DNA of 64,000 nt from an uncultured Candidatus Rokubacteria bacterium (GTDB lineage: Bacteria; Methylomirabilota; Methylomirabilia; Rokubacteriales; CSP1-6), in contig CAVYTA010000007.1 of the NCBI GenBank assembly GCA_963771355.1, positions 288,001 to 352,000 on the forward strand, read 5' to 3'. A program made the position numbers and the translations under genes. This document shows, in pieces, positions 436 to 51,300 of this stretch (its first letter is position 1; each line of letters opens with the position of its first letter). Under the pieces are notes generated by a model that searched no databases, had not been told where the DNA came from, and saw only the letters and a list, made by a program, of their open reading frames with translations.

Positions 436-936
436 ATGATGTTCACCTCAATGATGAAGGCGTTTCGCAGGACGGGGCGCGAGGAGGGATTCACCCTCGT
501 CGAGCTTCTGATCGTGATCCTCATCGTCGGCATTCTCGCGGCGGTGGCAATTCCTCTGTACCTGGGGTACACGAAGGATGCCAAGCTGGCTGAAGGCAAG
601 GCGCTCCTGGGCTCGGTGATGACGGCACTGCAGGGATGCGTGCAGGCCAAGGGCTCCGGGCAGAGCTGCTCGGTCAGCGAGATCGTCAATCGCGTCGGTG
701 TCAGCACGGCCGGCGTGACGGGCGATGGGCGGTGGACGGTGACGACCTCGGGGAGCCTCGCGGTGTCCTCGACCTCGCCGCCGACCTTCAGCGGTACCAT
801 TCAGGCGGTCGGCACGGGTGCCGACACGGCCGCGCTCTCGCTGGGCATGTTCCCGACCACGACCGGTGTCTTCCTCCGTTGCAACTCCTCCAGCAGCACG
901 CCGCCGTCGGGTCCCACCGCCGGCGAGCCCTGCTAG
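436..936 (+). CDS. pilA: Type IV major pilin
   Basis: Class III signal REEG|FTLVELLIVILIVGILAAVAIP with Glu5; GGAGG RBS at 427-431; C-terminal Cys pair; start at ATG 436 or 439. Confidence 0.9.
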   Translation: MMFTSMMKAFRRTGREEGFTLVELLIVILIVGILAAVAIPLYLGYTKDAKLAEGKALLGSVMTALQGCVQAKGSGQSCSVSEIVNRVGVSTAGVTGDGRWTVTTSGSLAVSSTSPPTFSGTIQAVGTGADTAALSLGMFPTTTGVFLRCNSSSSTPPSGPTAGEPC

Positions 937-955
937 CCGAATTTCGTCGCAGCAC

Positions 956-988
956 CCGGGGGTGACGGGGATGACCCGCCACCCCCGG
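956..988 (+). terminator. GC-rich stem-loop after pilA (terminator or mRNA stabiliser)
   Basis: CCGGGGGTGACGGG (956-969) pairs with CCCGCCACCCCCGG (975-988), 1 mismatch; no U-tract. Confidence 0.45.
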
Positions 989-1014
989 CGTCATTCCCCC
1001 TCCTCTCGTCACCC

Positions 1015-2982
1015 ATGACCCCGCCCGGCACCGCCCCGATCGTCCGTGGCTTTCCGCGCTGGATCGACGGCACCCTCGTCATCCTCGCGGCGGTCGCCGC
1101 GTTTCTCCCCGGCATATTCGGCGGCTTCCTCGGCTGGGACGACGATCAGAACTTTCTCGAGAATCCCGGCTATCGGGGCCTGGGTCCCCGCCAGCTCGGG
1201 TGGATGCTCACCACCTTCCACATGGGGCACTGGAAGCCGCTCACCTGGCTCACCCATGGCGTGGACTGGGCGCTGTGGGGGATGCACCCGCTCGGCTACA
1301 AGGCGGGGAGCATCGCGCTGCACGTCGCCGCCACCCTGGCGTTTCTCGCGCTGGCGCGTCGGCTCCTGCGCCTGGCGCAGCCGGGGTACCCGCTCGACGC
1401 GGTGCGAGCGGGAGCTCTCGGCGCCGCGCTGCTCTTTGCCGTGCATCCGTTGCGCGTGGAGCCGGTGGCCTGGCTGAGCGCGCGCGGCGATCTCGTGGCC
1501 GGGCTCGTCGCATTCCTCAGCGTGCTGGCATATCTCCGGGGGACGCGGGCCGGGTACTGGATGTCCGTCGGCCTGTTCGCGGTGGCGCTCACGGGGAAAT
1601 CCATGCCCGTGACCCTGCCGCTCGTGCTCCTCGTCCTCGATGTCTACCCGCTCCGCCGGCTCGGCCCCTTCGCGGAAGGCGGCCCGTCCATCGGCGGCTG
1701 GTGGAATCCGCCGGCCCGGCGGATCTATCTCGAGAAGGCGCCTTTCCTCGTCCTGTCCGCCGCGGCCACCATCATGGCTGTCCTCGCGCGGATCGAGTTC
1801 GGAAGCCTCGCCGAGGTCAACGAGGTGGGGTGGGGCGCGCGCCTGGCTGCCAGCGTGTACGCGCTTGCCTTCCCCCTCTGGAAGATGGTGATCCCCGTAG
1901 GTCTCTCGCCTCTCTACGACCTCCGGGCGGCGCTGGGCCGCGGCCCCTGGCCCTTCGTCATGGCCGGCACGGCCGTCGCCGGGCTCACCGCGCTGGCGGT
2001 GGCGCGCGCCCGCCGCTGGCCGGCCTTCGCGGCGGTGTGGGCGTCCTACGTGATCATGCTGCTGCCGGTGTCGGGCCTCGTCCAGAACGGCCCTCAGATC
2101 GCAGCGGACCGCTATACCTATCTGGCCGGCGGAGGCTGGGCGCTGCTCGCCGGCGGTGGGCTCGCCTGGTGCGCCGCGCACGTGACGGCCCGCTCGCCGC
2201 GCGCCGCGCTCGCGCGGGGCGTGCTGGGTCTCATGGTGGCCGCCACGCTCGTCCTGGTGAGCGCAAGCGCGTGGCAGGCCCTCATCTGGCACAACTCGGT
2301 CACGCTCTGGTCGCGCGTGGTGGAGCTGGAGCCGGACGGCGCCATCGCGCGGACCGGGCTCGGCACCGCGCTGCTGGCCGACGGCCGGCCGCTCGAGGCC
2401 GCGGCCCACTACCGCCGCGCGCTGGAGATCTTCCCGCGGCTGCCCGAGGCGAATCTCGGGCTGGCTCTGATCCTGGCCGGCGAGGGCCGGGGCGCGGAGG
2501 CGCTGCTCCACGGGCGCCAGGCGGTGGCGCGTCAGCCGCAGCGGGCGGGATTCCGGATGGTGTTCGCCGAGATCCTCTGGGGCGCGGACCGGCGCGAGGA
2601 GTCGCTCGCCGAGCTGCGCGAAGGCGCGCGGCTGGCCCCCGCTGTCCCGCTCTTTCCCTACCTGCTCGCGGTCAAGCTCGCCCGGATGGGACGGGGACCG
2701 GAGGCCATCGCCGCGCTCGAGGAGGGCCGCCGGCTCGAGCGCGCCGCGTACCTCTCGGGTCTCGAGGGCGATCGATTCACGGCGCTGGTGTACGAGTCGA
2801 TCGATCCCCCCACCGCCGTGGCCGCCTGGCAGCGCTACGTGATCGCGCTGAGCCGGGTGCCGCGGCCGACGGCGCTGCAGCTCAGCCAGCTTGCGTATGG
2901 TATCGCCGCGCTCGACGCGCTCACGAAGAGCTCGGCGCCGCCCCGGGCGCTCCCCCCGGCGCCCTCAGGGACCTCTCGGTAG
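1015..2982 (+). CDS. TMTC-like GT-C glycosyltransferase (multi-TM) with C-terminal TPRs
   Basis: WDD after TM1, LLFAVHPLRVEPVAWLSAR, ADRYTYL, W..SVTLW, then TPR-like helices; motifs typical of TMTC/DUF1736 O-mannosyltransferase-like proteins. Confidence 0.8.
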   Translation: MTPPGTAPIVRGFPRWIDGTLVILAAVAAFLPGIFGGFLGWDDDQNFLENPGYRGLGPRQLGWMLTTFHMGHWKPLTWLTHGVDWALWGMHPLGYKAGSIALHVAATLAFLALARRLLRLAQPGYPLDAVRAGALGAALLFAVHPLRVEPVAWLSARGDLVAGLVAFLSVLAYLRGTRAGYWMSVGLFAVALTGKSMPVTLPLVLLVLDVYPLRRLGPFAEGGPSIGGWWNPPARRIYLEKAPFLVLSAAATIMAVLARIEFGSLAEVNEVGWGARLAASVYALAFPLWKMVIPVGLSPLYDLRAALGRGPWPFVMAGTAVAGLTALAVARARRWPAFAAVWASYVIMLLPVSGLVQNGPQIAADRYTYLAGGGWALLAGGGLAWCAAHVTARSPRAALARGVLGLMVAATLVLVSASAWQALIWHNSVTLWSRVVELEPDGAIARTGLGTALLADGRPLEAAAHYRRALEIFPRLPEANLGLALILAGEGRGAEALLHGRQAVARQPQRAGFRMVFAEILWGADRREESLAELREGARLAPAVPLFPYLLAVKLARMGRGPEAIAALEEGRRLERAAYLSGLEGDRFTALVYESIDPPTAVAAWQRYVIALSRVPRPTALQLSQLAYGIAALDALTKSSAPPRALPPAPSGTSR

Positions 2983-3089
2983 GGCAACTCGCCACCACCT
3001 CGGGCGCAGCTCCACGTGCTCTCCGATACGCCGCAGCGGCCGTCACGCCGCCGACCCAGCGCAACCGGCGGGCGGGCGGGGAGCCACGC

Positions 3090-5069
3090 TCAGCTCGGCT
3101 CCGCCGCGCAGCCGTCCAGCTCGACCGGCCGTACGCCCAGCGCGGCCGCGGCACGCCGCGCATTGGCACAGGCGTCGGTCGCGCGCGGCACCAGGCGCAG
3201 CGCGTGGACGAAGGCGTCCATGGCCTCCGCGTAGCGGCCGCGCGCTGCGTAGGTGACGCCGAGGTTGTTCCAGGCGGCCGCGAGCTGCGGATCGAGCCGG
3301 ACGGCGAGCCGGTACAGCTCCTCCGCCTCGGCATCGCCCCGATACTGCTGGAGCAGCACGGCGAGCAGGAAGGCCAGACGGGCCCGCGCGTCCGGGATCT
3401 CCTCTGGCACCGCCAGGATCGCCGCGCGCAGCTCCCAGACGTGATAGCGGGACCAGACCGACGCGCGCTCGACCGCGGCGGCGAGCGCGGCCGCGGCCTC
3501 GCTGCGCGCGCCGTGGGCCTGTAGCAGCGTGCCCAGACGGATCCAGGCCACGGGGTGGTCGGGGTCCAAGGTGAGCGCCTCGCGAAGGCGGCGCTCCGCC
3601 TCCACGGGCCGCCCGGCCTGCTGCTCCACGAGGCCGACGTGCAGGACGAACTGGGCGCGCAGCGCCGGCAGGGTGACGGGCACCCGCGCGAGCGAGGCCT
3701 CGAAGTGCGCGCGGGCCTCGTCGAAGCGGCGGGCCTCGGCCAGCGCCCAGCCGAGGTAGAAGAGCGGGACGTCGCTGTCCGGGTCCGCCCAGGCGGCATG
3801 GCGCCAGAGCGCCACGGAGTCGTGCCAGACCGCGAGCTGTCGCTGCGTGAGGAGGCCGAGCCCGACGAGCAGCAGGAGCGTGGCGACCAGCGCGAGGCGG
3901 CCGAGGCGTGTGGTCAGTCGCCCGGCGCGCCAGGCGCGCCACCCCCAGGGCAGCCCCGCGCCCGCCACGATCGCCCAGCCGATCAAGGGCAGGTAGGAGT
4001 AGCGATCGGCCGCGATCTGCGGGCCGTTCGGCAAGATGCCCGCCGCGGGAATGAGCAAGGCGACATAGGCCACCCAGGCCGTGAGGCCCGCCGGCCAACG
4101 GCGGCGCAGGGCCATCAGGGCCACGGTGAGCGCGAGCGTGACCGCGCCCGGCACGAGGTAGCGGGCGGTGAGGGGCTCGACGGGATGGTAGAGGGTGTAG
4201 AGCGGTGACAGGGGCCACGGCCACAGCGTCTTGCCCAGATAGAACGCGAGGCCGTAGCCGGTGAGCGCCAGCCGCGGGGGAAGGCTGGCCGCCTCCACGG
4301 GCGCGAGGATGCCCCGGCCGAAGGCGATCGCCAGCATGATCCCCGCCGCGGCGACGGCCACCACCACGAAGGGGAGCTTCTCGACGAGTACGGGGACGAG
4401 GGTCCGCCGGGAGAGCCGTCGCAGCGGATAGATGTCGAGGGCCAGCAGGACAATCGGCAAACCCACCACGATGGACTTGGCGAACGCGGCCAGGAGGAAG
4501 GCCCCCGCCGAGGCAGCCAGCCAGCCCGCGTGCGCCCGGCCCGATGGCCCTGCGCGCCGCGCCGCGGTCAGGTAGGCGAGGACGGAGACCAGAGCGAAGC
4601 ATCCGCTCACCACATCGCGGCGCTCGGTGACCCACGCCACCGATTCCACGCGCAGCGGGTGCAGCGCGAAGAGGAGCGCGGCGGAGGCGGCGCCGAGGTG
4701 AAGGGGGAATCGATCGTCGTCACGGATGGGGGCGAAGCCGAGCGCGAGGAGCTGGAGGGCCACGGCATAGACCAGCACCGCGTTGGTGGCGTGGAACATG
4801 AGGGAGGTCAGATGGTAGCCCGCCGGATTCATGCCCCAGAGGGCATGGTCCAGGCCCAGGGTCAGCCACGTCACCGGGATGTAGTGCCCCATGTGGACGG
4901 CGGTGAGCATCCACCGGAGCTCGGCCGCGCCGAGGCCGCGATAGTGCGGGTTGCCCAGGAAGTTCTCGGCGTCGTCCCAGTTGAGGAAGTCCGCGTCGAG
5001 GGCGGGCAGGAAGGCAGCGAGAGCCCCCGCGAAGACCAGGACGGGAAGGCTTCTCACGAGCGCGCGCAC
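3090..5069 (-). CDS. Second TMTC-like GT-C glycosyltransferase with TPRs (paralogue)
   Basis: WDDAENFLGNPHYRG, LLFALHPLRVESVAWVTERRD, ADRYSYL, and clear TPRs (AWNNLGVTYAARGRYAEA). Confidence 0.82.
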   Translation of the reverse strand: MRALVRSLPVLVFAGALAAFLPALDADFLNWDDAENFLGNPHYRGLGAAELRWMLTAVHMGHYIPVTWLTLGLDHALWGMNPAGYHLTSLMFHATNAVLVYAVALQLLALGFAPIRDDDRFPLHLGAASAALLFALHPLRVESVAWVTERRDVVSGCFALVSVLAYLTAARRAGPSGRAHAGWLAASAGAFLLAAFAKSIVVGLPIVLLALDIYPLRRLSRRTLVPVLVEKLPFVVVAVAAAGIMLAIAFGRGILAPVEAASLPPRLALTGYGLAFYLGKTLWPWPLSPLYTLYHPVEPLTARYLVPGAVTLALTVALMALRRRWPAGLTAWVAYVALLIPAAGILPNGPQIAADRYSYLPLIGWAIVAGAGLPWGWRAWRAGRLTTRLGRLALVATLLLLVGLGLLTQRQLAVWHDSVALWRHAAWADPDSDVPLFYLGWALAEARRFDEARAHFEASLARVPVTLPALRAQFVLHVGLVEQQAGRPVEAERRLREALTLDPDHPVAWIRLGTLLQAHGARSEAAAALAAAVERASVWSRYHVWELRAAILAVPEEIPDARARLAFLLAVLLQQYRGDAEAEELYRLAVRLDPQLAAAWNNLGVTYAARGRYAEAMDAFVHALRLVPRATDACANARRAAAALGVRPVELDGCAAEPS

Positions 5070-7900: not shown

Positions 7901-7985
7901 CGGGCTCAGACTAGCACGCGGCCGGAGGCCTCCCAAGGAAGCACGGATCTTGGAGGCAGCGCGGGGACCGCGCTACAGTGGGCGC

Positions 7986-31888: not shown

Positions 31889-33189
31889 CGTATCGCGAGG
31901 CCGTGGCCCGGCTCCTCGCGCTGCGGGGCGGGGAGATGGCGGGCATGCGGCCGGGGCTGGCCCCCATCCAGGCCCTGCTCGACGCCGTCGGCAATCCCGA
32001 GAGCCGGATGCGGCTCGTCCAGATCGGCGGCACCAATGGCAAGGGATCCGCCTCGGCCATGCTGGCGGCCATGCTCCACTCGGCCGGCCTCCGCACCGGG
32101 CTCTACACGTCCCCGCATCTCCGCTCCGTGCGCGAGCGCATCCGGGTGGACGGCCGCTGCATCGCCGAGGACGACCTGGCGGACGGTGTGGACGCCCTCG
32201 GCACGCTCTTCGCGCGGCTGGACGCCACCGTCTTCGAGGCCACCACCGCGCTCGCCCTCGATCACTTCGCGCGGGCGGGCGTCGAGGTGGCGGTGCTGGA
32301 GGTGGGCCTGGGCGGCCGGCTCGACGCCACCACCGTCGGGCGCCCCCACGTGAGCGTGCTGACCCGCATCGACTATGACCACCAGGCGCTCCTGGGCGAT
32401 ACCCTGGCGCGGATCGCCTGGGACAAGGCGCATATCATCCGCAGCGGGGTGGCGGTGTCGGCGCGCCAGGAGCCCGAGGCGGAGACGCCCATCCTGGAGC
32501 GCGCGGCCGCGGTCGGCGTGCCGCTCCTTCTGGAGGGACGCGAGCTCGGCGTCTCGGTGCGCGAGGCGTCCCTCGACGGGCAGCGGCTCGACCTGACCGG
32601 GCCCGACTGGCGCATCGAGGACGCGCGCTGTGCGCTGCTGGGTCCCCATCAGCCGAGCAATGCGCTGGTGGCGGTGGCCGCCGCGCGCGTCATGGGCGCG
32701 GGCGAGGCGGCGATACGGCGGGGGCTCGCGGAGGTGCGCTGGCCGGGGCGCTTTCAGGTGCTCGCCGGCTCGCCCACCGTGATCCTGGACGGCGCCCACA
32801 ATCCCGGCGGCGCCCGGGCGCTGGCCGCCTCGCTCCGCGCGTATTTTCCCGGGCGCCCGGTCGCCTTCGTGCTGGGCATCTCCGCCGACAAGGACCTGGC
32901 CGGCATTCTCTCCCCGCTCCTGCCCCTGGCCGAGCGTGTCGTCTTCACGGCGGCGAACTCGCCGCGCGCGGCCGACCCCGAATCCCTCCGTGAGCTCGCG
33001 CGGCACCTGGGGCCGTTGCCCGGGGAGCGCCTTGCCGTCGCCGCTCGGCCGGCCGACGCCCTCGCCCGGCTACGACGGGAGAGCCCCGACGCGCTGGTGT
33101 GCGCGGCCGGCTCCCTGTTCCTGCTCGGCGAGCTCCTGTCCGACCGCCCGGAAACGCTCGATATGCTTTGCGGAATTGACGCCGGCTGA
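31885..33189 (+). CDS. folC: Folylpolyglutamate/dihydrofolate synthase
   Basis: GTNGKGS, YTSPHL, EVGLGGRLDAT, WPGRF, LDGAHNP. Confidence 0.95.
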   Translation: MTYREAVARLLALRGGEMAGMRPGLAPIQALLDAVGNPESRMRLVQIGGTNGKGSASAMLAAMLHSAGLRTGLYTSPHLRSVRERIRVDGRCIAEDDLADGVDALGTLFARLDATVFEATTALALDHFARAGVEVAVLEVGLGGRLDATTVGRPHVSVLTRIDYDHQALLGDTLARIAWDKAHIIRSGVAVSARQEPEAETPILERAAAVGVPLLLEGRELGVSVREASLDGQRLDLTGPDWRIEDARCALLGPHQPSNALVAVAAARVMGAGEAAIRRGLAEVRWPGRFQVLAGSPTVILDGAHNPGGARALAASLRAYFPGRPVAFVLGISADKDLAGILSPLLPLAERVVFTAANSPRAADPESLRELARHLGPLPGERLAVAARPADALARLRRESPDALVCAAGSLFLLGELLSDRPETLDMLCGIDAG

Positions 33190-33211
33190 TATAGCATGTG
33201 CGCTGAGCTCA

Positions 33212-35407
33212 ATGCCGTCCACACGCGCGCGTGCAGTCTGGGGCGCCCTGCTCCTCGTCCTGCCGCTGGTCCTGGGTTCGCCCGGAGCCGGCCTTGCCCA
33301 GTCCCCCCGGTCTCCCGTCACGATTCAGCAGGAGGGGGCCGGCGAGGTGACCGTGATCGCGGATCAGATGCAGCAGGTGACCGGCCCTCCCGATCTGCTC
33401 ATCGCGGTCGGCAATGTCGAGATCGTGCGCGGGGGCTCCCGACTCCTCGCCGACCGGGTGGAGCTCAATCGCGATACGGGCGAGGCGATCGCGCAGGGCA
33501 AGGTCGTCTTCTACGACGGCCAGGACCGGCTGGTCGGCGATCGTGTGGACTACAATCTCAAGACCGGCACCGGCGTCGTCTACAACGCCAACGCCTTCGC
33601 CGCGCCGTACTACTCGTTGAGCGGGCAGCGTCTCGACCGCATCGGCGAGGGCGTCTATGCGGCGCAGGACGCGGTCTTCACCACCTGCGAGGGTGACAAC
33701 CCGGCCTGGTCCTTCCGGGTGGGCTCGTGTGTGGCGGACCTCAATGACATCGTGACCGGCCGGGATGCCTCGTTCTGGGTGGGCAAGGTCCCCCTCATCC
33801 CGTGGTTCCCGTGGTTCGCCGCCGCCATCCGGCGCGAGCGGCAGTCCGGCTTCCTCTTCCCGCAGGTGGGCATCTCCAGCAACAAGGGCTTCTTCACGCG
33901 GGTGCCCTATTACTGGGCCATCGACGACAGTCAGGATCTCACGGTGTCGCTGGACACCTTCACCTCCCGCGGGGTGGGATCGAGCATCGAGTACCGCTAT
34001 ATCCAGTCCCAGAACGCCGCCGGCTCGCTGACTGGCTTCTTCGTCCACGAGGCCTTCGACGATAACGAGACGCGCGGCGTCGGTATTGCCAAGCACACCT
34101 GGGACATCGCGCCGGGGCTCTCTTTCAAGGTGGACGCCAACGTCACCACCGACGACAAGGTGTACCGCGAGTACGGCGACCGGCTCCAGGAGCGCTCGAA
34201 CCAGCGGGCGGAGACCAATGTCTTCGTCACCAAGCGCTGGGATACCTGGAATCTCGTCGGCAATATCCTCTGGTACCAGGACTTGACCGTCGACCGGCCG
34301 GTGGAGCTCCAGCGCGTGCCGGAGATCCGTCTCGACGGGTTGCGTCAGCCCATTCCGGGGATGCCCGGGTTCTTCTACGAGACCCAGGCCTCCTTCACGA
34401 ACTTCATCCGGGAGGTGGGTTCCAGTGGGCTGCGCACCGATCTGCACCCCCGCGTGTCCTATCCGATCCCGGTGGGCGGATACTTCACGGTGACGCCCTT
34501 CGCCGGCGGGCGCGCCACCTACTACGACAAGCGCGTGGTGGGGACGCGGGTGACGCGGATAAATGACTCCGAGGGGATCGAGATCGAGGAGACGGTGGAC
34601 GACCCCCGGGTCCGCGCCCAGATAGAGGGCGGCGTCGAGCTGGAGACCCGGCTCACGCGCGTCTGGGCGGTGGACGGGACCTGGGGCCTGTCCGCGCTGC
34701 AACACGTGATCGAGCCCCGCGCCACCTGGACGGAGATCCGCGGGGTGAACCAGAAGGACAATCCCCAGTACGATCCCGTCATCGACGACATCGGCAAGAC
34801 GAGCCAGGTGACGTACTCCATCACCCAGCGGCTCAACGCCAAGACGGTGGCCGGCCCCAACCAGGAAGCGGTGCGCTGGGAGGCCGTGCGCTTCGTCCTG
34901 GCCCAGACCTACAACCTCCTCCCCGCCGCGGACCAGCCCTTCAAGGACCTCAGGGCCGAGGTCATCTTGCGACCCAATCAAATGTTCGGCTTTCGCGGGG
35001 ACGCGGCCTGGAACCTCTACGGGCTGGGGCTGCGCACCGCCACCGCCGACGTCAACGGGACCTACAAAGACGTCACCGCCGCGCTGGGCGTACGCTACAA
35101 CGACATCAACGTGGACCCCCCGGTTGGAACGCGCCTCGACGACGAGCTCGAGCCGAGGTACTCCAACGTCAATGCCGAGGTCGCGGCCCGGATCACGACA
35201 CACGTCAATGCGCGCGCCTCGAGCCACTGGGACCTGAGGAAAGGCACCAAGGTCGAGAATCGCTTCGGGGTGGACATCCACTTCCAGTGTTGGGCTATCC
35301 TGCTGGAGTACGTGGATCGGCACAAGGACGAGGACGAGTTCCGCTTCTCGATCAACCTGCTCGGGATAGGACAGACGGGCACGCGCTTCGGGACGGGAAT
35401 CCGCTAG
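33212..35407 (+). CDS. lptD: LPS-assembly outer-membrane protein LptD
   Basis: Signal peptide, beta-jellyroll repeats, FTTC, RQSGFLFP, PYYWAI, LQRVPE, HVIEPR, QCW near the C-terminus. Confidence 0.88.
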   Translation: MPSTRARAVWGALLLVLPLVLGSPGAGLAQSPRSPVTIQQEGAGEVTVIADQMQQVTGPPDLLIAVGNVEIVRGGSRLLADRVELNRDTGEAIAQGKVVFYDGQDRLVGDRVDYNLKTGTGVVYNANAFAAPYYSLSGQRLDRIGEGVYAAQDAVFTTCEGDNPAWSFRVGSCVADLNDIVTGRDASFWVGKVPLIPWFPWFAAAIRRERQSGFLFPQVGISSNKGFFTRVPYYWAIDDSQDLTVSLDTFTSRGVGSSIEYRYIQSQNAAGSLTGFFVHEAFDDNETRGVGIAKHTWDIAPGLSFKVDANVTTDDKVYREYGDRLQERSNQRAETNVFVTKRWDTWNLVGNILWYQDLTVDRPVELQRVPEIRLDGLRQPIPGMPGFFYETQASFTNFIREVGSSGLRTDLHPRVSYPIPVGGYFTVTPFAGGRATYYDKRVVGTRVTRINDSEGIEIEETVDDPRVRAQIEGGVELETRLTRVWAVDGTWGLSALQHVIEPRATWTEIRGVNQKDNPQYDPVIDDIGKTSQVTYSITQRLNAKTVAGPNQEAVRWEAVRFVLAQTYNLLPAADQPFKDLRAEVILRPNQMFGFRGDAAWNLYGLGLRTATADVNGTYKDVTAALGVRYNDINVDPPVGTRLDDELEPRYSNVNAEVAARITTHVNARASSHWDLRKGTKVENRFGVDIHFQCWAILLEYVDRHKDEDEFRFSINLLGIGQTGTRFGTGIR

Positions 35408-35411
35408 CCCC

Positions 35412-36530
35412 ATGACCGAGATCCGGGTTCCGCAGATCGACCTCAAGCGCCAGCACGCGGCCCTGCGCGCCGAGCTGCTGGAGGCGACGGAGCGCGTGCT
35501 CACCTCGGCGTGGTTCATCATGGGGCCGGAAGGCCGGGCGCTGGAGGAGGAGCTGGCGACGGCCTCCGGGGCGCGGTTCGGGGTGGGCCTCAATTCCGGC
35601 ACCGACGCCCTGCTCCTCGCGCTCCGGGCGCTGGGCATCGGGCCCGGCGACGAGGTCATCACCTCGGCCTTCTCGTTCGTGGCGTCCGGGAGCACCATCG
35701 CGCTCGCGGGCGCCACCCCCGTCTTCGTGGACATCGATCCCGCGACCTATAATCTCGATCCCGCGGCAGTCGCCCGTGCCGTCACCCCGCGCACGCGGGC
35801 GGTGGTGCCCGTGCATCTCTACGGCCAGCTCGCCGACATGGTGGCCCTCGAGGCCATCGCGCGGCCGCGCGGGCTCGCGGTGATCGCCGACGCCGCCCAG
35901 GCGGTGGGCGCCGCCTGGGGCGACCGCCCGGTGGGCGCGTGGGGGGACGCGGTGTGCCTGTCGTTCTACCCCACCAAGAACCTCGGCGCCTGCGGGGACG
36001 GCGGCATGCTCCTCACCTCCCGGGAGGACGTGGCGCAGCGGGTGCGCCGGCTCCGCGATCACGGCTCACCGCGGAAGTACGAGCACGTGGAGCTGGGGCA
36101 GTCGAGCCGGCTCGATGATCTCCAGGCGGCCCTGCTTCGCGTCAAGCTGCGCCGGCTGGGCGAGTGGACCGCGGCCCGCCGCCGCCTGGCCGCGCGCTAC
36201 CGCGAGCTCCTGGCCGGCCTGCCCCTCGAGCTGCCCGTCGAGCGGCCCCCCGCTTTCCACGTCTATCACCAGTTCACGGTGCGGGTGGCGCGCCGGGACG
36301 CGGTGGCCCGCCGGCTCGCGGAGCTCGGCATCGGCACCACCGTGCACTACCCGCTGACGATTCCCGCCCAGCCGCTCTTCTGCCCGCTCGACGGGGCGGC
36401 CAAGGTGGCCGCCGAATTTCCGGAGTCCACGCGCGCCGCGCGCGAGGTGCTCTCCCTCCCGTGCTTTCCGGAGCTGACGGACGCCGAGCTCGCCGAGGTG
36501 GCCGCCGCCCTGCGCATCGCGCTGGGCTAG
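35412..36530 (+). CDS. DegT/DnrJ/EryC1/StrS sugar aminotransferase
   Basis: NSGTDAL, VHLYGQ, DAAQA, SFYPTKNLGACGDGG. Confidence 0.92.
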   Translation: MTEIRVPQIDLKRQHAALRAELLEATERVLTSAWFIMGPEGRALEEELATASGARFGVGLNSGTDALLLALRALGIGPGDEVITSAFSFVASGSTIALAGATPVFVDIDPATYNLDPAAVARAVTPRTRAVVPVHLYGQLADMVALEAIARPRGLAVIADAAQAVGAAWGDRPVGAWGDAVCLSFYPTKNLGACGDGGMLLTSREDVAQRVRRLRDHGSPRKYEHVELGQSSRLDDLQAALLRVKLRRLGEWTAARRRLAARYRELLAGLPLELPVERPPAFHVYHQFTVRVARRDAVARRLAELGIGTTVHYPLTIPAQPLFCPLDGAAKVAAEFPESTRAAREVLSLPCFPELTDAELAEVAAALRIALG

Positions 36531-36537
36531 GCGCGCC

Positions 36538-37422
36538 ATGGGACTGGTCGCTGCCGTCCTCGCCTCGCTGCGCCCGCGGCAGTGGGCGAAGAACCTCTTC
36601 GTCTTCGCGGGCGTCATCTTCTCGCAACAGCTGTTCACTCCCCAGGTGTGGCGGGCGGTGGCCGCGTTCGCGCTCTTCTGCGCGCTCTCCGGCGCCATCT
36701 ACCTCCTGAACGACGTGGCGGACGCGGAGAAAGACCGCCTGCATCCCACCAAGCGCCGCCGGCCGGTGGCCTCGGGCGCGCTGTCCCGCGGGCTCGCGCT
36801 GGGCATCGGCGTCGCCCTCCTCGCGGCGAGCGTGGTGGTGTCGTTCGGCCTGGGGGTCCCCTTCGGCCTGGTGGCGGTCAGCTACGGGGTGCTCCTCACC
36901 GCGTACTCTGTGTGGCTGAAGCACCTCGTCATCCTCGACGTGCTCACGGTGGCGGTGGGCTTCGTGCTCCGGGCGGTGGCGGGGGCGGTGGCGGTGGGCG
37001 CGGACATCTCCGGGTGGCTGCTCATCTGCACCGTGCTCATCGCGCTCTTCCTCGCGCTGGGCAAGCGCCGGCACGAGTACCTCATGTTGAAGGGAGCCGC
37101 CGCCGCCCATCGACCCATCCTGGCCGAGTACAGCGAGGGGTTCATCGACCAGATGATCGCGGTGGTCACGTCCTCGGCGGTGACCGCTTACGCGCTCTAC
37201 ACCATGTCGCCGGAGACGGTGGCCAAGTTCCATACCCGGCTGCTGCCGCTCACGCTGCCCTTCGTGCTCTACGGGATCTTCCGCTACCTCTACCTCCTCT
37301 ACCGCCGTGAGCTGGGCGGCAATCCCTCGGACCTCGTCCTGTCCGACCGCTCGCTCCTGCTGAACACCACCCTCTGGATGGCCGCCGTCCTCGTGCTGAT
37401 CTACGGCCCGTGGGGACGTTGA
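36538..37422 (+). CDS. Polyprenyl-phosphate phosphoribosyltransferase (UbiA family, Rv3806c-like)
   Basis: LRPRQWAKN, YLLNDVADAEKDRLHPTKRRRPVASG, YS..LKH...LD, LGKRRHE. Confidence 0.88.
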   Translation: MGLVAAVLASLRPRQWAKNLFVFAGVIFSQQLFTPQVWRAVAAFALFCALSGAIYLLNDVADAEKDRLHPTKRRRPVASGALSRGLALGIGVALLAASVVVSFGLGVPFGLVAVSYGVLLTAYSVWLKHLVILDVLTVAVGFVLRAVAGAVAVGADISGWLLICTVLIALFLALGKRRHEYLMLKGAAAAHRPILAEYSEGFIDQMIAVVTSSAVTAYALYTMSPETVAKFHTRLLPLTLPFVLYGIFRYLYLLYRRELGGNPSDLVLSDRSLLLNTTLWMAAVLVLIYGPWGR

Positions 37423-39620
37423 CCCTCCCGGTCGCGCGCGCGGCCGTGGCGGGGTGGGGCCGCTTTCCCGTCCGTCCCGGGCGGGTGGTGCGTCCCGAGC
37501 GGCTGGAGCTTCCCGCGGGCGAGTCCCTGGTGCTGCCGCGCGGACTGGGTCGCGCCTACGGCGACGCGGCGGTGCCCTGGCGCGAGGCGACCCTGGTGCT
37601 GGAGACCGGGCGCGCCGACCGCATCCTCGACTGGGATCCCGTGACCGGCCGGCTCACTGCGGAAGCGGGGCTGTCCCTGTCCGAGGTGCTGCGGCTCTTC
37701 GTCCCCCGCGGCTGGTTCCCGCCCGTGACCCCGGGGACCAAGTTCGTGACCCTGGGCGGGTGCGTGGCCACGGACGTGCACGGCAAGAACCACCACCGAG
37801 ACGGCTCCTTCGCCAGCTTCGTGGACCGGCTCACCCTGCTGACCGCGGAGGGGAAGACGGTGGCATGCGGGCCCGACCTCGAGCGGGAGCTCTTCCTCGC
37901 CACCGTGGGCGGGATGGGGCTCACCGGCCTCATCACCGAGGTGACCCTCCGCCTGCGGCCGGTCGAGTCGGGCTGGATCGTCATGGAGAGCGAGGGCGTG
38001 CCGGACCTCGATCACATGGTGAGCGCCCTGGAATCGAGCGGCCGGGACTGGCCCTATACCGTGGGCTGGATCGACTGCCTGGCCTCGGGCGCCGGGCTGG
38101 GGCGCGGCGTGCTGCTGCGCGGCCGTCACGCCGCGCGCGCGGAGGTCCCGGGCGACGATCCGCGCGCGCGGCGCACCCTGCGCGTGCCCCTGGACGCCCC
38201 CGAGTGGCTCCTCAGCCCGCCCGCCATGCGCGCCTTCAACGGGCTTTACTACTGGCTCAAGGCCGGCCGGCGCGGCGGCGGCCGCGCGGGGGCCCGGCCC
38301 CACCTCGTCTCCTACGAGTCCTTCTTCTACCCGCTGGACGCGCTCGGCGACTGGAATCGCCTCTACGGCCGGCGCGGCTTTCTCCAGTACCAGTGCGTGG
38401 TGCCCCGGGCGGTCGGGCGGGCGGCGACGCGCGAGCTCCTGGAGCGTCTCGCGCACGCGGGGGCGGCGTCCTTCCTCGCCGTGATCAAGGACTGCGGGCC
38501 TGCCGGCCCCGCGCCCCTCTCGTTCCCGCTGGAGGGAATCACCCTGGCGCTGGACTTGCCCCACCGGGGGCCGCCCACCGTGGCCCTCGTGCATGAGCTC
38601 AACGCCACCGTGATGGCGGCGGGCGGCCGCATCTATCTCGCCAAGGATGCCGTCACGCGCGCGGAGGACTTCGCGCGCATGACCCCGCGCCTGGCCGAAT
38701 GGCAGGCGCTCCGGGACCGCTGGGATCCCGCGCGGCGCTTCCGCTCCGCCATGTCGGTGCGCCTCTTCGGTGACGGAGTTGATTGGCGAGCCGCAGCCGC
38801 AGGCGAGGCGAGCGGATATGGTGGAGCTTTCCGAGCGGAGCGAGGGGGGCGAGCCGCAGCCGCAGGCGAGGCGAGCGGATACATGAAAGCGGTGTTCGTG
38901 GGCGCCACGCGCGGCATGGGCAAGGCGCTCGCCCGGCGTATGGCCGAGCGGGCCGACGCACTGTACCTCCTGGGCCGCGACGCGGAGGGGCTGGCCCTCG
39001 CCGCGCGCGACCTGGAGGCACGCGGAGCCCGCGCCCCGGTGCGGTCGGGCCCGCTGGACCTGGGCGATCCCGGAGGCTTCGTGGCCGCCCTCGACGCGGC
39101 CGACGCGGCCCTCGATCGCTTCGACACCCTGGTGATCACCGCCGGGCTCTTCGGCGCCCAGGACGCCCTCGCCGCGGACGCGGCGCGGCTCGAGCGGCTG
39201 TTCAGCGTCAACTTCACGGGCACCGCGCTGCTGTGCCAGCTCGCCGCCGACCGCTTGGCCGAGCGCGGGGGCGGGGTCATCTGCGCCTTCAGCTCGGTGG
39301 CGGGGGATCGCGCGCGGGCCGCCAACTACCTCTACGGCGCCTCCAAGGCGGGGCTCTCGGCCTTTCTTGACGGGCTGGGTCTCGCCTACGCCGACCGCGA
39401 CGTCCGGGTGGTCTGCGTGCGGCCCGGCTTCGTGCGCACGGAGATGACCGCCGGCCTGCCCGAGCCTCCCTTCGCGGGCGAGCCGGACACGGTGGCGACG
39501 TCGGCGCTCCGGGCCATGGACGCGGGATCCCCTCGGGTCTACAGCCCCGGCATCTGGCGCTGGATCATGGGCGTGATCCGCGCCTTGCCGCGGTCGGTGG
39601 TGCGACGGCTGCGCGTCTAG
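37419..39620 (+). CDS. DprE1-like FAD oxidoreductase fused in frame to a DprE2-like SDR (internal ATG 38883)
   Basis: PRGLGRAYGDAA, PVTPGT..VTLGG..A.DVHGKNHH, FFYPLD...WNR.YG..GFLQYQ, GGRIYLAKD; then GATRGMG, SSVAGDR.R..NY.YGASKA, VRPGFVRT.MT. Confidence 0.88.
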   Translation: MTLPVARAAVAGWGRFPVRPGRVVRPERLELPAGESLVLPRGLGRAYGDAAVPWREATLVLETGRADRILDWDPVTGRLTAEAGLSLSEVLRLFVPRGWFPPVTPGTKFVTLGGCVATDVHGKNHHRDGSFASFVDRLTLLTAEGKTVACGPDLERELFLATVGGMGLTGLITEVTLRLRPVESGWIVMESEGVPDLDHMVSALESSGRDWPYTVGWIDCLASGAGLGRGVLLRGRHAARAEVPGDDPRARRTLRVPLDAPEWLLSPPAMRAFNGLYYWLKAGRRGGGRAGARPHLVSYESFFYPLDALGDWNRLYGRRGFLQYQCVVPRAVGRAATRELLERLAHAGAASFLAVIKDCGPAGPAPLSFPLEGITLALDLPHRGPPTVALVHELNATVMAAGGRIYLAKDAVTRAEDFARMTPRLAEWQALRDRWDPARRFRSAMSVRLFGDGVDWRAAAAGEASGYGGAFRAERGGRAAAAGEASGYMKAVFVGATRGMGKALARRMAERADALYLLGRDAEGLALAARDLEARGARAPVRSGPLDLGDPGGFVAALDAADAALDRFDTLVITAGLFGAQDALAADAARLERLFSVNFTGTALLCQLAADRLAERGGGVICAFSSVAGDRARAANYLYGASKAGLSAFLDGLGLAYADRDVRVVCVRPGFVRTEMTAGLPEPPFAGEPDTVATSALRAMDAGSPRVYSPGIWRWIMGVIRALPRSVVRRLRV
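38785..38881 (+). repeat. Two identical 34-bp direct repeats separated by 29 bp (period 63)
   Basis: GGCGAGCCGCAGCCGCAGGCGAGGCGAGCGGATA at 38785-38818 and 38848-38881. Confidence 0.9.
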
Positions 39621-39664
39621 GCGGTCCCGGAGCGGGCGGTTGCGAGTCGAGTACAATGGTCACC

Positions 39665-41086
39665 ATGCTGGAGCCCGTGCGCGTCCGCTTTGCGCCCAGT
39701 CCCACCGGCCACCTCCACGTGGGCGGGGCCCGCACTGCGCTGTTCAACTGGGCCTTCGCGCGGCGCCACGGAGGCGTCTTCATCCTCCGGATCGAAGACA
39801 CCGATCGCGAGCGCTCCACCCAGGAGTCTCTCGAGGGGATCCTCGACGCCCTGACGTGGCTCGGGCTCGATTGGGACGAGGGGCCGCCGACGGCCGGCTA
39901 TCGGCAGACCGAGCGCAACGATATCTATCGCGCCCATGCCGACCGGCTGCTCGCCGAGGGCAAGGCCTATCGCTGTCGGTGCACGCCGGCCCTGCTCGAT
40001 TCCCTGCGTACGGCGGCCCAGGCGCGCGGCGAGACCTTCCGCTATCCCGGCACCTGTCGTGACGCGCAGGTGCCCGCCGGCGAGCCGCACGCGCTGCGGC
40101 TCCGCATCCCGGACACCGGGCAAACCGTGGTGGAGGACGTGCTCCACGGGACGGTGGTCTTCGATCATAGCCAGCTCGACGACTGGATCATCGTGCGCAC
40201 GGACGGAACGCCCACCTACAACTTCTGCGCGGTGGTGGACGACGTGACCATGAAGATCACCCACGTGATCCGGGGCGACGACCATCTGTCCAATACGCCG
40301 AAGCAGGTGCAGTGCTATCAGGCGCTCGGCTACCCGACTCCCGTCTTCGCGCATATCCCGCTCATCCTCGGCCCCGACAAGCGCCGGCTCTCGAAGCGCC
40401 ACGGAGCCAGCAGCGTGCAGGCGTTCCGCGAGGAGGGGGTTCTCACCGAGGCGCTCTTCAACTACCTGGCGCGGCTCGGCTGGTCGCACGGCGATCAGGA
40501 GGTCTTCTCGCGCGAGGACGTGGCGGCGCACTTCGATCTCGCCCACGTAGGGCAGGGGGCGGCCGTCTTCGACCGCGCCAAGCTGGAGTGGCTCAACCAG
40601 CACTGGATCAAGACGCTGCCGCCGGAGCAGGTCGTCGAGCGGCTGGTGCCGTTCCTCGAGCGGGCGGGGCTGCCGGTGCCCGCCGACCGCGCCTGGCTCG
40701 CCCGGGTGGTGATCACGCTCCGCGAGCGCGCCCGGACCCTGGTGGAGATGGCGGAGGCCGCGCGCTTCTACTTCGAGCCGCCGGCCGCGTACGATCCCGC
40801 CGCGGTGGCGAAGTTCTGGACCCCGGAGGCACCCGCGCGCTACGCCCTCCTCATCAAGCGCCTCGAGGCCGCGCCGCTCCTGGATCCCCCGGATCTCGAG
40901 GCGTTGTATCGCGGGCTGGCCGCCGAGCTGGAGCTCAAGCTCGTGGACCTCGCCCAGCTCACGCGCATCGCGCTGACCGGCCGCGCGGCCAGCCCGCCCA
41001 TCTTCGAGGTGGTCGCCCTCGTGGGCCGCGACGAGACCCTCCGCCGGCTGCGCGCCGCCCAGGCCGCCGCCGAGGCGCGCCGGTGA
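39665..41086 (+). CDS. gltX: Glutamate--tRNA ligase
   Basis: VRFAPSPTGHLHVGG, LRIEDTD, RLSKRHG; TACAAT 7 nt before ATG 39665. Confidence 0.96.
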   Translation: MLEPVRVRFAPSPTGHLHVGGARTALFNWAFARRHGGVFILRIEDTDRERSTQESLEGILDALTWLGLDWDEGPPTAGYRQTERNDIYRAHADRLLAEGKAYRCRCTPALLDSLRTAAQARGETFRYPGTCRDAQVPAGEPHALRLRIPDTGQTVVEDVLHGTVVFDHSQLDDWIIVRTDGTPTYNFCAVVDDVTMKITHVIRGDDHLSNTPKQVQCYQALGYPTPVFAHIPLILGPDKRRLSKRHGASSVQAFREEGVLTEALFNYLARLGWSHGDQEVFSREDVAAHFDLAHVGQGAAVFDRAKLEWLNQHWIKTLPPEQVVERLVPFLERAGLPVPADRAWLARVVITLRERARTLVEMAEAARFYFEPPAAYDPAAVAKFWTPEAPARYALLIKRLEAAPLLDPPDLEALYRGLAAELELKLVDLAQLTRIALTGRAASPPIFEVVALVGRDETLRRLRAAQAAAEARR

Positions 41087-48200: not shown

Positions 48201-48339
48201 CACGCTCGAGCTGGCGGGTCCGTTCCCCGCGCGCGTGGCGAAGAGCCTCGACTATCCGTCGCGGAAGGACTTCCTCGAGGACTACCGGAAGCGCACCGCG
48301 TGGGTGCGCGCGCTGTGGAGCCGCGTGGTGCCGGCATGA
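45280..48339 (+). CDS. glnE: Glutamine synthetase adenylyltransferase/adenylyl-removing enzyme
   Basis: Two nucleotidyltransferase domains: GMGKLGGDELNYSSDIDL, GVGKLGGRELTTGSDLDL; VDLRLRP twice. Confidence 0.93.
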   Translation: MVDLLRAAPRDRKALAELRRRGFTEPGTALANLHGLAPSPAEGALLEPLLPRLLAELAAAPDPDMALNNLERLAAQGDRAALLRTLGGHPGAIHLLARLGGTSQFLADTLRRYPQLLAWLLEPSIMRQWLADDFEAELTASLAPFTRREARWNALRRFKYRQLLRIGSRDILGDADLTVTTEELSRLADVCLAAACRWAEEALEPRYGVPLAPDGTRTGFAVIGMGKLGGDELNYSSDIDLIFVYGDDGETSGGSEGPVPNGHYFAEAAKAVVAAVESMTDEGYAFRVDLRLRPEGRSGALILSLEGYRAYFADRAELWERQALIKARLAAGDGAVAARFFQLVRPFVFRPGLDEAIVADVRRMKQEIDRAQRAKGAERRNVKLGRGGIREVEFLAQALQLLYAGDDPWLRGGNTLRTLFRLTERGYLSPGQGRMLGDALVFLRNVEHRLQILHEFQTHTLPEDPRALGLLARRMGVALPPDAARRRFLAEYRRVTNGVHAAFREFFEARAIPRGVTPPRIPTFTALKATGFADPDRARQNLRLVLEGRPLLPYPARAGAALARMLPVLLDALWQSPDPDEALNQFERFVSAAGPRTAWLELLADHPALLTNLVRLCARGELVTQMLLTQPELLGGLADPATFAAQKTGREFRAALAPVLAPATLPERKDLLRRLKGAEELRATWRMLLGVTDAERFSTELTALAQAALATAWLMAVTDEARRHGVPRDAAGRFIDAVIVGVGKLGGRELTTGSDLDLFVIFDRDGMTDGALPIEAAVFYHQAVEMLQSLLGDITAAGIVFPVDLRLRPGSKGSTFAASVDSMAQYYREWADPWERQTLTRARLVAGDPGVGRRVRRLVSELLYGPTAAAPDLKEMRMLRERMEKELGKETPGLYHVKFGRGGLVDVEFITQAIQLVHGRRHPGIRRPNTLQAIRAIGAAGLLPAEDVAALAEQYRFLRRVSASLRLFGVRPSDTLELAGPFPARVAKSLDYPSRKDFLEDYRKRTAWVRALWSRVVPA

Positions 48340-51300
48340 GCCCGCGCCTCTTCATCCTCGACGGGCCCGGGTTCCTCTTCCGCGCCTATCACGCGCTGCC
48401 GTATCTCTCCACGTCGCGTGGCATGCCGGTGAACGCGATACTGGGCATGTCCACCATGCTGTGGAAGCTGCTCCGGGAAGAGCAGCCGGACTACTTCGCG
48501 GTGGCGTGGGACCCGCCCGGCCCGACCTTTCGAGATGAGAAATTCGCCGCCTACAAGGAGACGCGCGCGGCCACGCCGGACGACCTGCGGCGCCAGATCC
48601 CCGTGGTCATGCAGCTGTTCGAGGCCCTTCGGCTGCCCCTGCTCGAGGTGCCGGGCTTCGAGGCCGACGACGTGCTGGGCACCGTGGTGGACCGGGCCCG
48701 CGCGCAGGATCTCGACGTGGTGCTCGTCACCAGCGACAAGGACATGCTCCAGCTCGTCGGGCCGCGGGTGCGCGTGCTCGCGCCGGGCGCGCGCGCGGGC
48801 GAGCAGGTCCTCTACGACGCGGACAAGGTCCGCGAGAAGTGGGGCGTGGGGCCCGAGCAGATTCCTGATCTCCTCGCGCTGATGGGCGACTCCATCGACA
48901 ATATCCCCGGCGTGCCCGGCGTGGGCCAGAAGACCGCGGTCAAGCTCATCGGCCAGTTCGGCTCGGTGGACGGGCTCTACGACCACCTCACCCTCGTGCC
49001 CGGCAAGCTGCGCGAGACGCTGGCCGCCAATCGCAAGCAGGCGCTGCTCTCGCGCGAGCTGGCCACCGTGAGCACCCGCGTGCCTCTGCCCGAGGATCTC
49101 GAGGGCCTGCGGCGCCAGGAGCCGGACTGGGAGCGCCTGCGCGCGCTGTGGACCGAGCTCGAGCTGCGCACCTTGCTCCGCCAGCTCCCGGAGCAGCCCG
49201 GCGCGCCGGTGGAGATGGCGGACGAGCTGCCCGTCGACAGCCCCGAGGCCCTGGCCGCCTTTCTGGCCAAGGTTCCCGCGGGCGAGCCGCTCGCGGTGGA
49301 CTGGATGGGGGAGGGAGGGCCGCCGAGTCCCGAGGTCACGCGCGTGGGCCTGCATCACCCGGCCGCCGGCGACGTGCTCGTGGCCGCGGAGACCCTCGGG
49401 CCGCTGGCCGGCCGCACCCTCATCGGGCACGACCTGAAGCCCCTGCTGGAGTGGTGGCTCGCGCGCGGGGAGCCGGCCCCTCCGGTGGAGGACACCGCGG
49501 TGGCCGCGTACCTCCTCAACTCGGCGCGCAGCAACTACAAGCTCGAGGAAGTGTGCGCCGAGCACCTGGGCGAGGGGCCGGGGCTCGCGCGCCCGGGCGG
49601 CCGGGCGCGCTGGGTGTGGCAGCTCTGGGAGCAGGAGGCGCGCGAGCTGCGGGAGGCCACCCTCCGCGCGCTCTACGACGAGATCGAGCGCCCCCTCATC
49701 CCCGTCCTCGCCTCCATGGAGCGCCACGGCGTCACCGTGGATCCCGCCCGCCTCGCCGAGTTCTCGAAGGAGCTGGATCGCAGCCTCGGCAACCTGACGG
49801 GGGAGATCTACACGCTCGCCGGCGAGCAGTTCAACCTGGGCTCGCCCAAGCAGCTCGCCACCATCCTCTTCGAGAAGCTGCGGCTGCCGCCGGTGCGGAA
49901 GACCAAGACCGGCTACTCCACCGACGCCGACGTGCTCGAGCAGCTCGCGCTGAGCCACGCGCTGCCCGCCAAGATCATCGAGCACCGCACGCTGGCCAAG
50001 CTCAAGTCGACCTACGCGGACGCGCTGCCCCTCATGATCAACGCCGAGACCGGGCGCATCCACACGTCGCTGAACCAGCTCGTGGCGGCGACGGGGCGGC
50101 TCTCCTGCCTGCCCGCGGGCACGCTGGTCAATACCCGGAGAGGGCTGGTCGGAATCGAGACGGTGCGACCCGGTGAGCACATCCATACCTCACGCGGCAT
50201 GCAGATCGTCCAGGCCTCGGAGTGCACGGGAGTGAAGCCGGTCGTCGCCCTCCACCTGTCCAACGGGACGATCTTTCGATGCAGTCCGGAACACCGGCTC
50301 CGGAGCAAGGGGGTCTGGAAGACCGCCGAAGAGATCGGGGCCGGAGACCCGCTCTACATGACGTTTCGCGAAGGCATGTTCGGGGATCGCCTCCGGCTCG
50401 ACGTGGCGCGGACCGCCGACTATGAAACGCGGAAGTCTCCTCGAATTCCGGCGGAATGGTCGGTGGAGCTCGCCGAGCTGGTCGGCTATGCGATGGCGGA
50501 CGGCCACATCGCCCGGAGCAACTACAACGGTAAGCCGGCCAAGCTCGTTCTCGCGTTCGGGTGGGATGAAGACGCGCTCGAGCAGCGGATGGCCCAGCAC
50601 ATCGTCAAGCTCTTCGGCAAGGAGCCTACCTTCAGGGTCACTCGCACCTGCCCGGTTCTGGAAGTGTCCGGCGTGGACATCGGGGGCTTCATCGAGCAGA
50701 TAGGCGCGGGCGGGTTGTCGGGTGCGCTGAGAGTGCCGCCGTCCTTGTTCCAGGCTCCGAAAGGGCGTGGTGGCGCGCATTTCTTCGAGGATACTTCGAG
50801 GGGGATGGCTCCGCTGATCCACTGAGTGTTCGATCCGTCTCGAGGGGGATGCTGGAGGATGTCCACTACCTCCTGACGCTGTTCGGCATTCCGAGCCGCA
50901 TTCGAGAGGGAGAGCTCGATCCTCGAGGCTACGCGCCGCGCCACACGCTCAGGATTCTGGGAGATCGCTCCAAGCGGACATTCCTCGGGAGTATCGGGTT
51001 CCTGAGCTCGAGGAAGATCGAGCGACTCGCGGAGTTCGCGAATCGACCGAAGGCGAAGAGCAAGAGTGAGCTGCTCACGCTCAGAGATCCGGCCGACGTT
51101 CTGGACCTCATGCCGACCATCTTCGAAGCCGCACGCTCATCCGATGGAGGAGTGTCGCCGTCACTCTATCAGTTTGCCCACACGTTCGCGGCGGGGCGCA
51201 CGACGATCACGCTGGGCCGGGCCGAGCAGATCCGGCGAGCAATCCGGCTACGAGTATCGACTCCACCGGCCTATCTCGCCGAGATCGTCGGCAGTCAGTA

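Follow-up and report, generated by a model that had tools for sequence, protein, structure and literature searches.

The cassette and its surroundings

The stretch described here (the window) comprises 64,000 nucleotides of contig CAVYTA010000007.1 from an uncultured Candidatus Rokubacteria bacterium. Positions 36538 to 39620 carry a cassette of three adjacent genes that resemble the mycobacterial genes for a lipid-linked D-arabinofuranose (Araf) donor. The source genome measures 5.5 Mb in 8 contigs and is 99.8% complete; the names of close homologues in the source databases point to Rokubacteria/Methylomirabilota. The cassette is embedded in a run of housekeeping genes in the order galU, nicotinate phosphoribosyltransferase, trpFBA, accD, folC, lptD, degT, cassette, gltX. 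A first-pass annotation, made from the sequence, had placed lptD two genes upstream of the cassette, and the gene annotation of the window bears this out. The features of the cassette and the landmarks of its position, or slot, are as follows.

32936..36530, + strand: lptD and a gene for a DegT-family aminotransferase, upstream landmarks of the slot, retained upon deletion of the module
36538..37422, + strand: polyprenyl-phosphate phosphoribosyltransferase (DPPR synthase/Rv3806c-like, UbiA family), 294 amino acids, from NCBIfam and PDB matches
37410..38783, + strand: DprE1-like flavin adenine dinucleotide (FAD) oxidase, from PDB 4aut; found in 32 of 161 genomes of the phylum
38785..38881, no strand: dispersed intergenic repeat, two 34-nucleotide direct copies 63 nucleotides apart, with 80 BLAST hits in the genome
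38883..39620, + strand: DprE2-like short-chain dehydrogenase/reductase (SDR) with its own ATG, from PDB and NCBIfam
39656..41086, + strand: gltX, downstream landmark of the slot

The same annotation had named the three genes as Rv3806c-like, DprE1-like and DprE2-like, and profile and structure searches agree. The synthase scored 276.6 bits against NCBIfam PRK12324 (decaprenyl-phosphate phosphoribosyltransferase; cut-off 234), and its best structure match is the DPPR synthase 8j8j (E 1e-34). The DprE1-like part is matched to 4aut (E 8e-75) and the DprE2-like part to 21gq_C (E 2e-31), DprE2 being the sole PDB match of the latter at E<=1e-18. For both, these best solved-structure matches extend across the full length, and the genes adjoin the synthase gene. 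The equivalog cut-offs of NCBIfam NF053785 and NF053786 were missed, with 371 of 500 bits for DprE1 and 164 of 250 bits for DprE2. The Cys of the 'NVCVDF' stretch of M. smegmatis DprE1, which we take to be the benzothiazinone-reactive Cys, is aligned to Ala in the window protein. Each of the three genes is single-copy in the genome (phmmer), and DprE1 homologues are also found on 50 plasmid records. The synthase is near-core in the order, with matches in 37 of 41 relatives, and is found in 101 of the 161 genomes of the phylum.

Together, the synthase, DprE1 and DprE2 would yield undecaprenyl-phospho-D-arabinofuranose. This chemistry, which the first-pass annotation had given as polyprenyl-phospho-D-Araf, is well supported by homology, and it is highly probable that the cassette makes a lipid-linked D-Araf donor. 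The pathway is already known from mycobacteria and P. aeruginosa, and the window cassette is a further member. The operon itself has no flippase, phosphatase or glycosyltransferase of the C fold (GT-C), and a search of the genome found no GtrA/Rv3789-like flippase. Proteins of the PAP2 and LPG-synthase types, encoded elsewhere, are candidates for these steps. A histidine phosphatase encoded after gltX was considered as the 5'-phosphatase and rejected as unspecific, since it is retained in the module-less genomes G012 and G019 (genomes, contigs and loci are denoted by G, C and L numbers).

The present assembly has DprE1 and DprE2 as a single open reading frame (ORF) of 736 amino acids, with the linker in frame. 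This single ORF results from the repeat plus a one-base difference near 38776. Each of the 11 relatives that match DprE1 in full has a stop codon after it, a few codons past the conserved C-terminus. Contigs were also compared from four runs of four studies. Two have one extra base after 38776, which produces a stop, and in the other two DprE1 is joined directly to the start of DprE2, without the repeat; these are contigs rather than raw reads, and the two with the extra base have a depth below 5. The repeat is present at the junction in G003, G004 and G007 at differing copy numbers and is missing there in other relatives. An indel in the assembly or an accident in the strain most likely accounts for the single ORF. 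The long frame and the in-frame linker would speak for a genuine fusion of DprE1 and DprE2, but this is largely refuted by the stops in the relatives and by the contigs of the four studies, and DprE2 has retained its own ATG. Such a fusion, or a cassette impaired by insertion of the repeat, is extremely improbable.

Exchange of genes in the slot before gltX

Synteny at about 40 loci reveals that the slot between the synthase gene and gltX holds DprE1/DprE2, a DUF362 gene or nothing, depending on the genome. In relatives that lack DprE1/DprE2, the slot gene encodes a DUF362 protein of about 358 amino acids. Among 41 relatives, DprE1 is found in 12 and DUF362 in 24, and none has both. The same holds for 161 Methylomirabilota genomes of at least 85% completeness (DprE1 in 32, DUF362 in 69, both in none, against 13.7 expected). 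Of the 101 synthase-positive genomes in this set, 30 have DprE1, 65 have DUF362 and 6 have neither; in four of these six, the synthase gene stands directly before gltX. Of 221 Acidobacteriota genomes, 73 have DUF362, 41 have DprE1 and 2 have both, where 13.5 would be expected. The two overlaps comprise one DprE1 match that is split in two pieces and another that is 34% identical.

A tree of six flanking genes was made from genomes having at least two of them. In this tree, DUF362 is ancestral, and DprE genes have replaced it in place twice, independently: once in a large clade (support 1.0) and once in G020, which is placed beside the DUF362-bearing G050 (support 0.993). The DprE1 of G020 is just 48% identical to that of the window. 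DprE1/DprE2 are a replacement part in a slot that ancestrally held DUF362.

The association of DUF362 with the synthase extends to other phyla. DUF362 has 587 matches in GTDB contigs; among the loci of the best 80, which come from many phyla, 54 contain the synthase, none DprE1 and 3 a TMTC-like gene. The membrane-protein neighbours at these loci include GT-Cs of the PMT_2, TMEM260-like and YfhO types, and LPG-synthase-type proteins. The operon at L166 (G049:C43) has the order synthase, TMEM260-like GT-C, DUF362 and LPG-synthase-type flippase candidate; a system of three components would be complete there, its GT-C being protein-glycosyltransferase-like.

In DUF362 proteins of relatives, the invariant K-T-H motif is interrupted by an intein-like insert of about 520 amino acids (C...HN), which separates K155 from T156 (L179:7871-10516, - strand; L180:8161-10803, + strand). 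Split DUF362 matches with frames of 870-890 amino acids occur in about 9 of the 69 DUF362 genomes.

Predicted fold and possible role of DUF362

Sequence searches of the PDB with DUF362 found nothing. The predicted model of DUF362 (predicted local distance difference test, pLDDT, 91) has LarA-family structures as its top Foldseek match (E 1e-5). Its structural Z scores to LarA racemases and epimerases are 14.3-16.6, at a sequence identity of 9-12%, and the next match is at 5.5. Residues H157, K167, H179, H182 and H186 are invariant in 59 DUF362 sequences. The larC gene is found in 36 of 41 relatives, whatever the state of the slot, and in 8 of 10 DUF362 genomes of other phyla. The source genome has a larE-larB-larC-like run for nickel-pincer cofactor synthesis (G000:C6:874592-877384), which has been retained though the slot DUF362 is gone; larE and larB are presumptive names that we gave from motifs.

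According to the available portions of the respective papers, DUF362 and LarA belong to one Pfam clan, CL0471 (PMC11770544), the known LarA substrates are 2-hydroxy acids (PMC11770544, PMC12611868), and LarA acts by proton-coupled hydride transfer via a keto intermediate (PMC12611868). This oxidation and re-reduction is the same net chemistry as that of DprE1/DprE2. For DUF362, the role of an epimerase fits better than that of a phosphatase, because DprE genomes would still need a phosphatase and yet have no DUF362. Given the mutual exclusion with DprE1/DprE2 in the slot, DUF362 is likely a one-protein alternative epimerase of the same lipid-linked ribose, as judged from sequence and predicted fold. 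A more specific proposal, which we make tentatively, is that DUF362 is a single-protein nickel-pincer C2 epimerase of polyprenyl-phosphoribose, which would take the place of DprE1 and DprE2 together in many phyla of bacteria and also in some archaea. No characterised member of DUF362 was found. In the openly accessible literature, supplements aside (for example SI Fig. S11 of PMC11127046, with further systems), we found no reported function of DUF362, no link between TfpW and TMTC and no alternative to the DprE epimerase.

DUF362 might instead form a different product, such as xylofuranose, which is the C3 epimer, or some other pentose derivative; its exclusivity with DprE1/DprE2 would then reflect alternative sugars competing for one substrate and one promiscuous transferase. 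The Citrobacter O1/O2 systems, as described in the available part of PMC11127046, do switch between ribofuranose (Ribf) and xylofuranose (Xylf) by means of an optional epimerase and a promiscuous GT-C. Synthase-only genomes exist, at least one of which (G134) keeps the GT-C pair described below, and the known LarA substrates are 2-hydroxy acids, not lipid-linked furanoses. However, the same AftB-related transferase is retained with either enzyme, and the transient oxidation and re-reduction in LarA is analogous to DprE1/DprE2. We consider a different product unlikely and prefer DUF362 as an epimerase equivalent to DprE1/DprE2.

The slot exchange amounts to a natural gene-displacement experiment, and it provides a testable function for DUF362, a family that is widespread, uncharacterised and sister to lactate racemase. 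If the proposed role is true, nickel-pincer chemistry would not be confined to small hydroxy acids but would include lipid-linked sugars, and the product of the well-studied DprE1/DprE2 step could be reached by two routes.

Candidate users of the donor

The first-pass annotation had proposed that the donor serves two TMTC-like enzymes encoded beside a pilin gene at one end of the window.

436..936, + strand: Ser/Thr-rich type IV pilin-like gene (pilA), 29% Ser plus Thr in the body, the proposed acceptor
1015..2982, + strand: TMTC-like GT-C with tetratricopeptide repeats (TPR), from motifs and model
3090..5069, - strand: second TMTC-like GT-C with TPR, from motifs

The distance of about 11 kb that had been given between cassette and pilus island is correct for the pilR-like end of the island (25312), but not for pilA and the two TMTC-like genes (436-5069), which are 31-35 kb from the cassette, across the galU-trp-accD-folC-lptD housekeeping run. 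These two genes are beside pilA, as had been noted for the window, but they are 2 of 6 TMTC-like paralogues in the genome, which has at least seven other GT-C candidates, namely six PMT_2 matches and the AftB-like gene.

The six paralogues share the motifs WDD, HPxxxE, RxD and RY/RF. They match motifs quoted for animal TMTCs in PMC7801869, the available part of which mentions uncharacterised prokaryotic homologues. A TMTC-like model from the six-sequence alignment (pLDDT 74) resembles ArnT, Pmt4 and oligosaccharyltransferase (OST). Foldseek gave no match to it at E<=0.001; all of the top 13 rows were membrane folds of GT-C type or akin to it (ArnT, Pmt4, OST and a glycosylphosphatidylinositol transamidase subunit). 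The window proteins have the motifs, the GT-C fold (in the predicted model) and the TPR tail of TMTC (GT105). Homologues are named 'protein O-mannosyl-transferase' in the source databases, and there is an Atlas match to a DUF1736 cluster at 0.93. With Pfam DUF1736, the TMTC-like proteins had no match, and the control was likewise unmatched in every genome. For the TMTC domain, nothing was found in sequence searches of PDB, NCBIfam, Pfam and plasmids.

Contig C6 carries the main locus for type IV pili (G000:C6:2099-2121 kb; L032, L033), with the order pilB-pilT-pilC-pilS-pilR-pilA-TMTC-pilD-pilMNOPQ-aroC-TMTC. Additional pilA copies are dispersed in the genome. In family f4, TMTC genes are located inside a lar gene run, beside larC; we treated this adjacency as incidental.

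A parallel to the proposed pilin modification is TfpW, a protein of 646 amino acids with 11 transmembrane helices, DDX and YX6PFX7P motifs and a C-terminal TPR domain, whose donor genes form a separate seven-gene cluster (bioRxiv 2020.04.19.049825, in the part available). The window likewise has a pilA-adjacent GT-C with a DD motif and a C-terminal TPR, and the pilA-linked paralogue on C6 has Y-X6-P-F. Likened to TMTC by its described motifs, TfpW makes it doubtful that Araf would be a new donor specificity for the family; such use by a TMTC architecture would probably not be new.

The distribution of the genes does not support the proposed link, which fails the co-occurrence check that the first-pass annotation had set for it. 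In the 161 genomes of the phylum, DprE1 was found in 32 and the synthase in 101, against 107 for TMTC-like genes, which were scored with 11 candidates per genome, so that their negatives are soft. Of the 107 TMTC-positive genomes, 28 have no synthase match; some of these are due to assembly gaps, and one of the 28 is 100% complete in a single contig. Within the order, 78 of the 93 genomes with TMTC-like genes have the synthase, as do 21 of the 25 without them (Fisher p=1.0).

The slot was also read directly to exclude assembly gaps. In G012, G060, G063, G090, G096, G113, G133 and G142, it is contiguous and either empty or occupied by remnants or an unrelated gene. All eight genomes have retained TMTC-like genes, and pilA-TMTC-pilD is intact in G012, G060 and G113. 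G019 has lost the module and has no TMTC match, while in G102 the slot is empty and DprE genes are found at another place; G002 and G015, in which gltX is missing too, were taken for gaps and left aside. Remnants of deletions that removed parts of the synthase and/or DUF362 are seen at L230 (G113), L082 (G019) and L189 (G104). A lower Ser/Thr content of the pilins after donor loss was considered and discarded: G012 has 14-15%, but G060 has 23-24%, G063 18-21% and G113 18-22%. The genome encodes predicted GT2 enzymes that could make hexose lipid donors.

A TfpW-like arabinosylation of pilin Ser/Thr by the pilA-linked TMTC-like enzymes, either exclusively or among several users of the donor, is rather unlikely. 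It would agree with the TfpW architecture and its separate donor cluster, with the Y-X6-P-F motif, with the Ser/Thr-rich pilins, with the TMTC-like genes in 11 of 12 DprE1-positive relatives (often 6-9 copies) and with those at 3 of the 80 DUF362 loci. Against it stand the retention of TMTC-like genes, intact pilA-TMTC-pilD and a normal pilin composition in G060 after loss of the module, the independence of synthase and TMTC within the order, and the GT2 candidates for hexose donors. Bacterial pilin-linked TMTC-like enzymes have no general need for a pentose donor.

Another candidate is a pair of genes that is not linked to the cassette, gtA and gtB, which is conserved before genes for an aspartyl protease, ileS and lspA.

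G000:C7:122399-125627 (L040:8400-11625), strand not stated: GT-C pair gtA and gtB

From the GT-C candidates other than the TMTC-like genes, the pair was chosen for comparison across genomes because one member resembled DUF362 neighbours in other phyla. They are present in seven of eight module genomes (G000, G020, G056, G094, G111, G134 and G034), which span all three states of the slot, and were not found in any of eight deletion genomes, where the query was DNA across both genes in five cases and the gtA protein in the other three. G111 and G134 have the pair and no TMTC match. In metagenome loci with enough downstream sequence, gtB is directly behind gtA in 65 of 67. A hidden Markov model of gtB matches ORFs in 4 of the 80 DUF362 loci. 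The family profile of gtB (A4, 23 sequences) has AftB (9dlf) as its sole PDB match (E 2e-14), with the DD, GxE, RPE and GR motifs aligned. gtA scores with PMT_2 and TMEM260-like clusters. A more distant gtB paralogue is located at C7:723355-725682. From these distributions and the profile match, gtA/gtB is probably the main user of the Araf donor, and would transfer Araf to a cell-envelope glycan and not to pilin.

We consider it moderately probable that the explanation holds as a whole: the three genes would make the Araf donor, gtA/gtB would use it, and DprE1/DprE2 took over the slot from an ancestral DUF362 of predicted LarA fold, which would epimerise the same lipid-linked ribose in one protein. 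Several points weigh against it. Related genomes are not independent, so that hypergeometric and Fisher values are overstated, and no phosphatase or flippase was identified for the pathway. The acceptor comparison is of 16 hand-picked related genomes (8 module, 8 deletion); the module genome G016 lacks gtA/gtB, and three deletion genomes were searched by the gtA protein alone. The pair is next to the synthase in 0 of 86 loci. gtB alone has no match in the PDB or to NCBIfam NF041481 (AftB), to which its relative L105 has a match at E 1e-8, far under the cut-off, and profile A4 takes in L105 and four other distant relatives. TMTC-like genes are missing from five of the six genomes that have the synthase only, and more TMTC copies are found in the large clade with DprE, both of which hint at some tie to TMTC; yet this is a single clade, and the module-less G063 has 10 copies.

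A wider picture is possible, although we lean slightly away from it. In it, DUF362 is a nickel-pincer epimerase, its exchange for DprE1/DprE2 is recorded twice in Rokubacteriales with the AftB-like transferase kept, and Araf envelope glycans occur far outside Actinobacteria. Beyond the known donor cassette, the interest of the locus lies in the evidence for the displacement of DUF362 and in the AftB-related pair, by which the donor is probably used in this uncultured lineage, abundant in soil.

Other features of the window

The polA gene (48300-52180) is split in two ORFs; the second begins with a match to LAGLIDADG, which suggests an intein with a break. At 5966-7936 (- strand), CHASE2 and adenylate-cyclase domains are on two consecutive ORFs, a possible frameshift. 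A PEP-CTERM protein is encoded inside the pilus cluster (8578-9273).

Comparison with known systems

The mycobacterial DPA pathway (Rv3806c, Rv3807c, DprE1/Rv3790, DprE2/Rv3791 and Rv3789) with AftB provides the best PDB matches of all three window proteins. As in mycobacteria, the source genome encodes a GT-C whose family profile matches AftB only. Unlike mycobacteria, the host is a diderm of lipopolysaccharide (LPS) type, no GtrA/Rv3789-like gene was found in its genome and the cassette has no phosphatase; the DprE1 and DprE2 proteins fall below the equivalog cut-offs, with Ala at the 'NVCVDF' Cys. The module is also dispensable here, having been deleted in at least eight relatives.

In P. 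aeruginosa Pa5196/PA7, by description in the available part of bioRxiv 2020.04.19.049825, TfpW is served by the same three donor families and is a pilA-adjacent GT-C with a DD motif, about 11 transmembrane helices and a C-terminal TPR. In contrast, the pilA-adjacent GT-C genes of the present lineage outlast deletion of the donor module and are distributed independently of the Araf donor genes.

Homologues of DprE1 and DprE2 are found in Gram-negative three-component glycan systems that add Araf (Kelly et al. 2024, PMC11127046, in the part available). The Citrobacter youngae O1/O2 systems treated there have in common with the present one a polyprenyl-phosphoribose synthase, an optional epimerase and a GT-C, and the three states of the slot (DprE1/DprE2, another enzyme, empty) have counterparts in their versions with Araf, Xylf and Ribf. 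They differ in that the synthase here has no fused HAD domain, no MATE flippase or other flippase and no GT-C are encoded with it, the candidate GT-C pair being unlinked, and the alternative slot enzyme, unlike the SDR ORF13 of Citrobacter, is predicted to fold like LarA. This enzyme is set apart from LarA by its low sequence identity and the proposed lipid-linked sugar substrate, and it resembles the LarA superfamily in its predicted fold; it has invariant His and Lys residues, and larC is common in the genomes.

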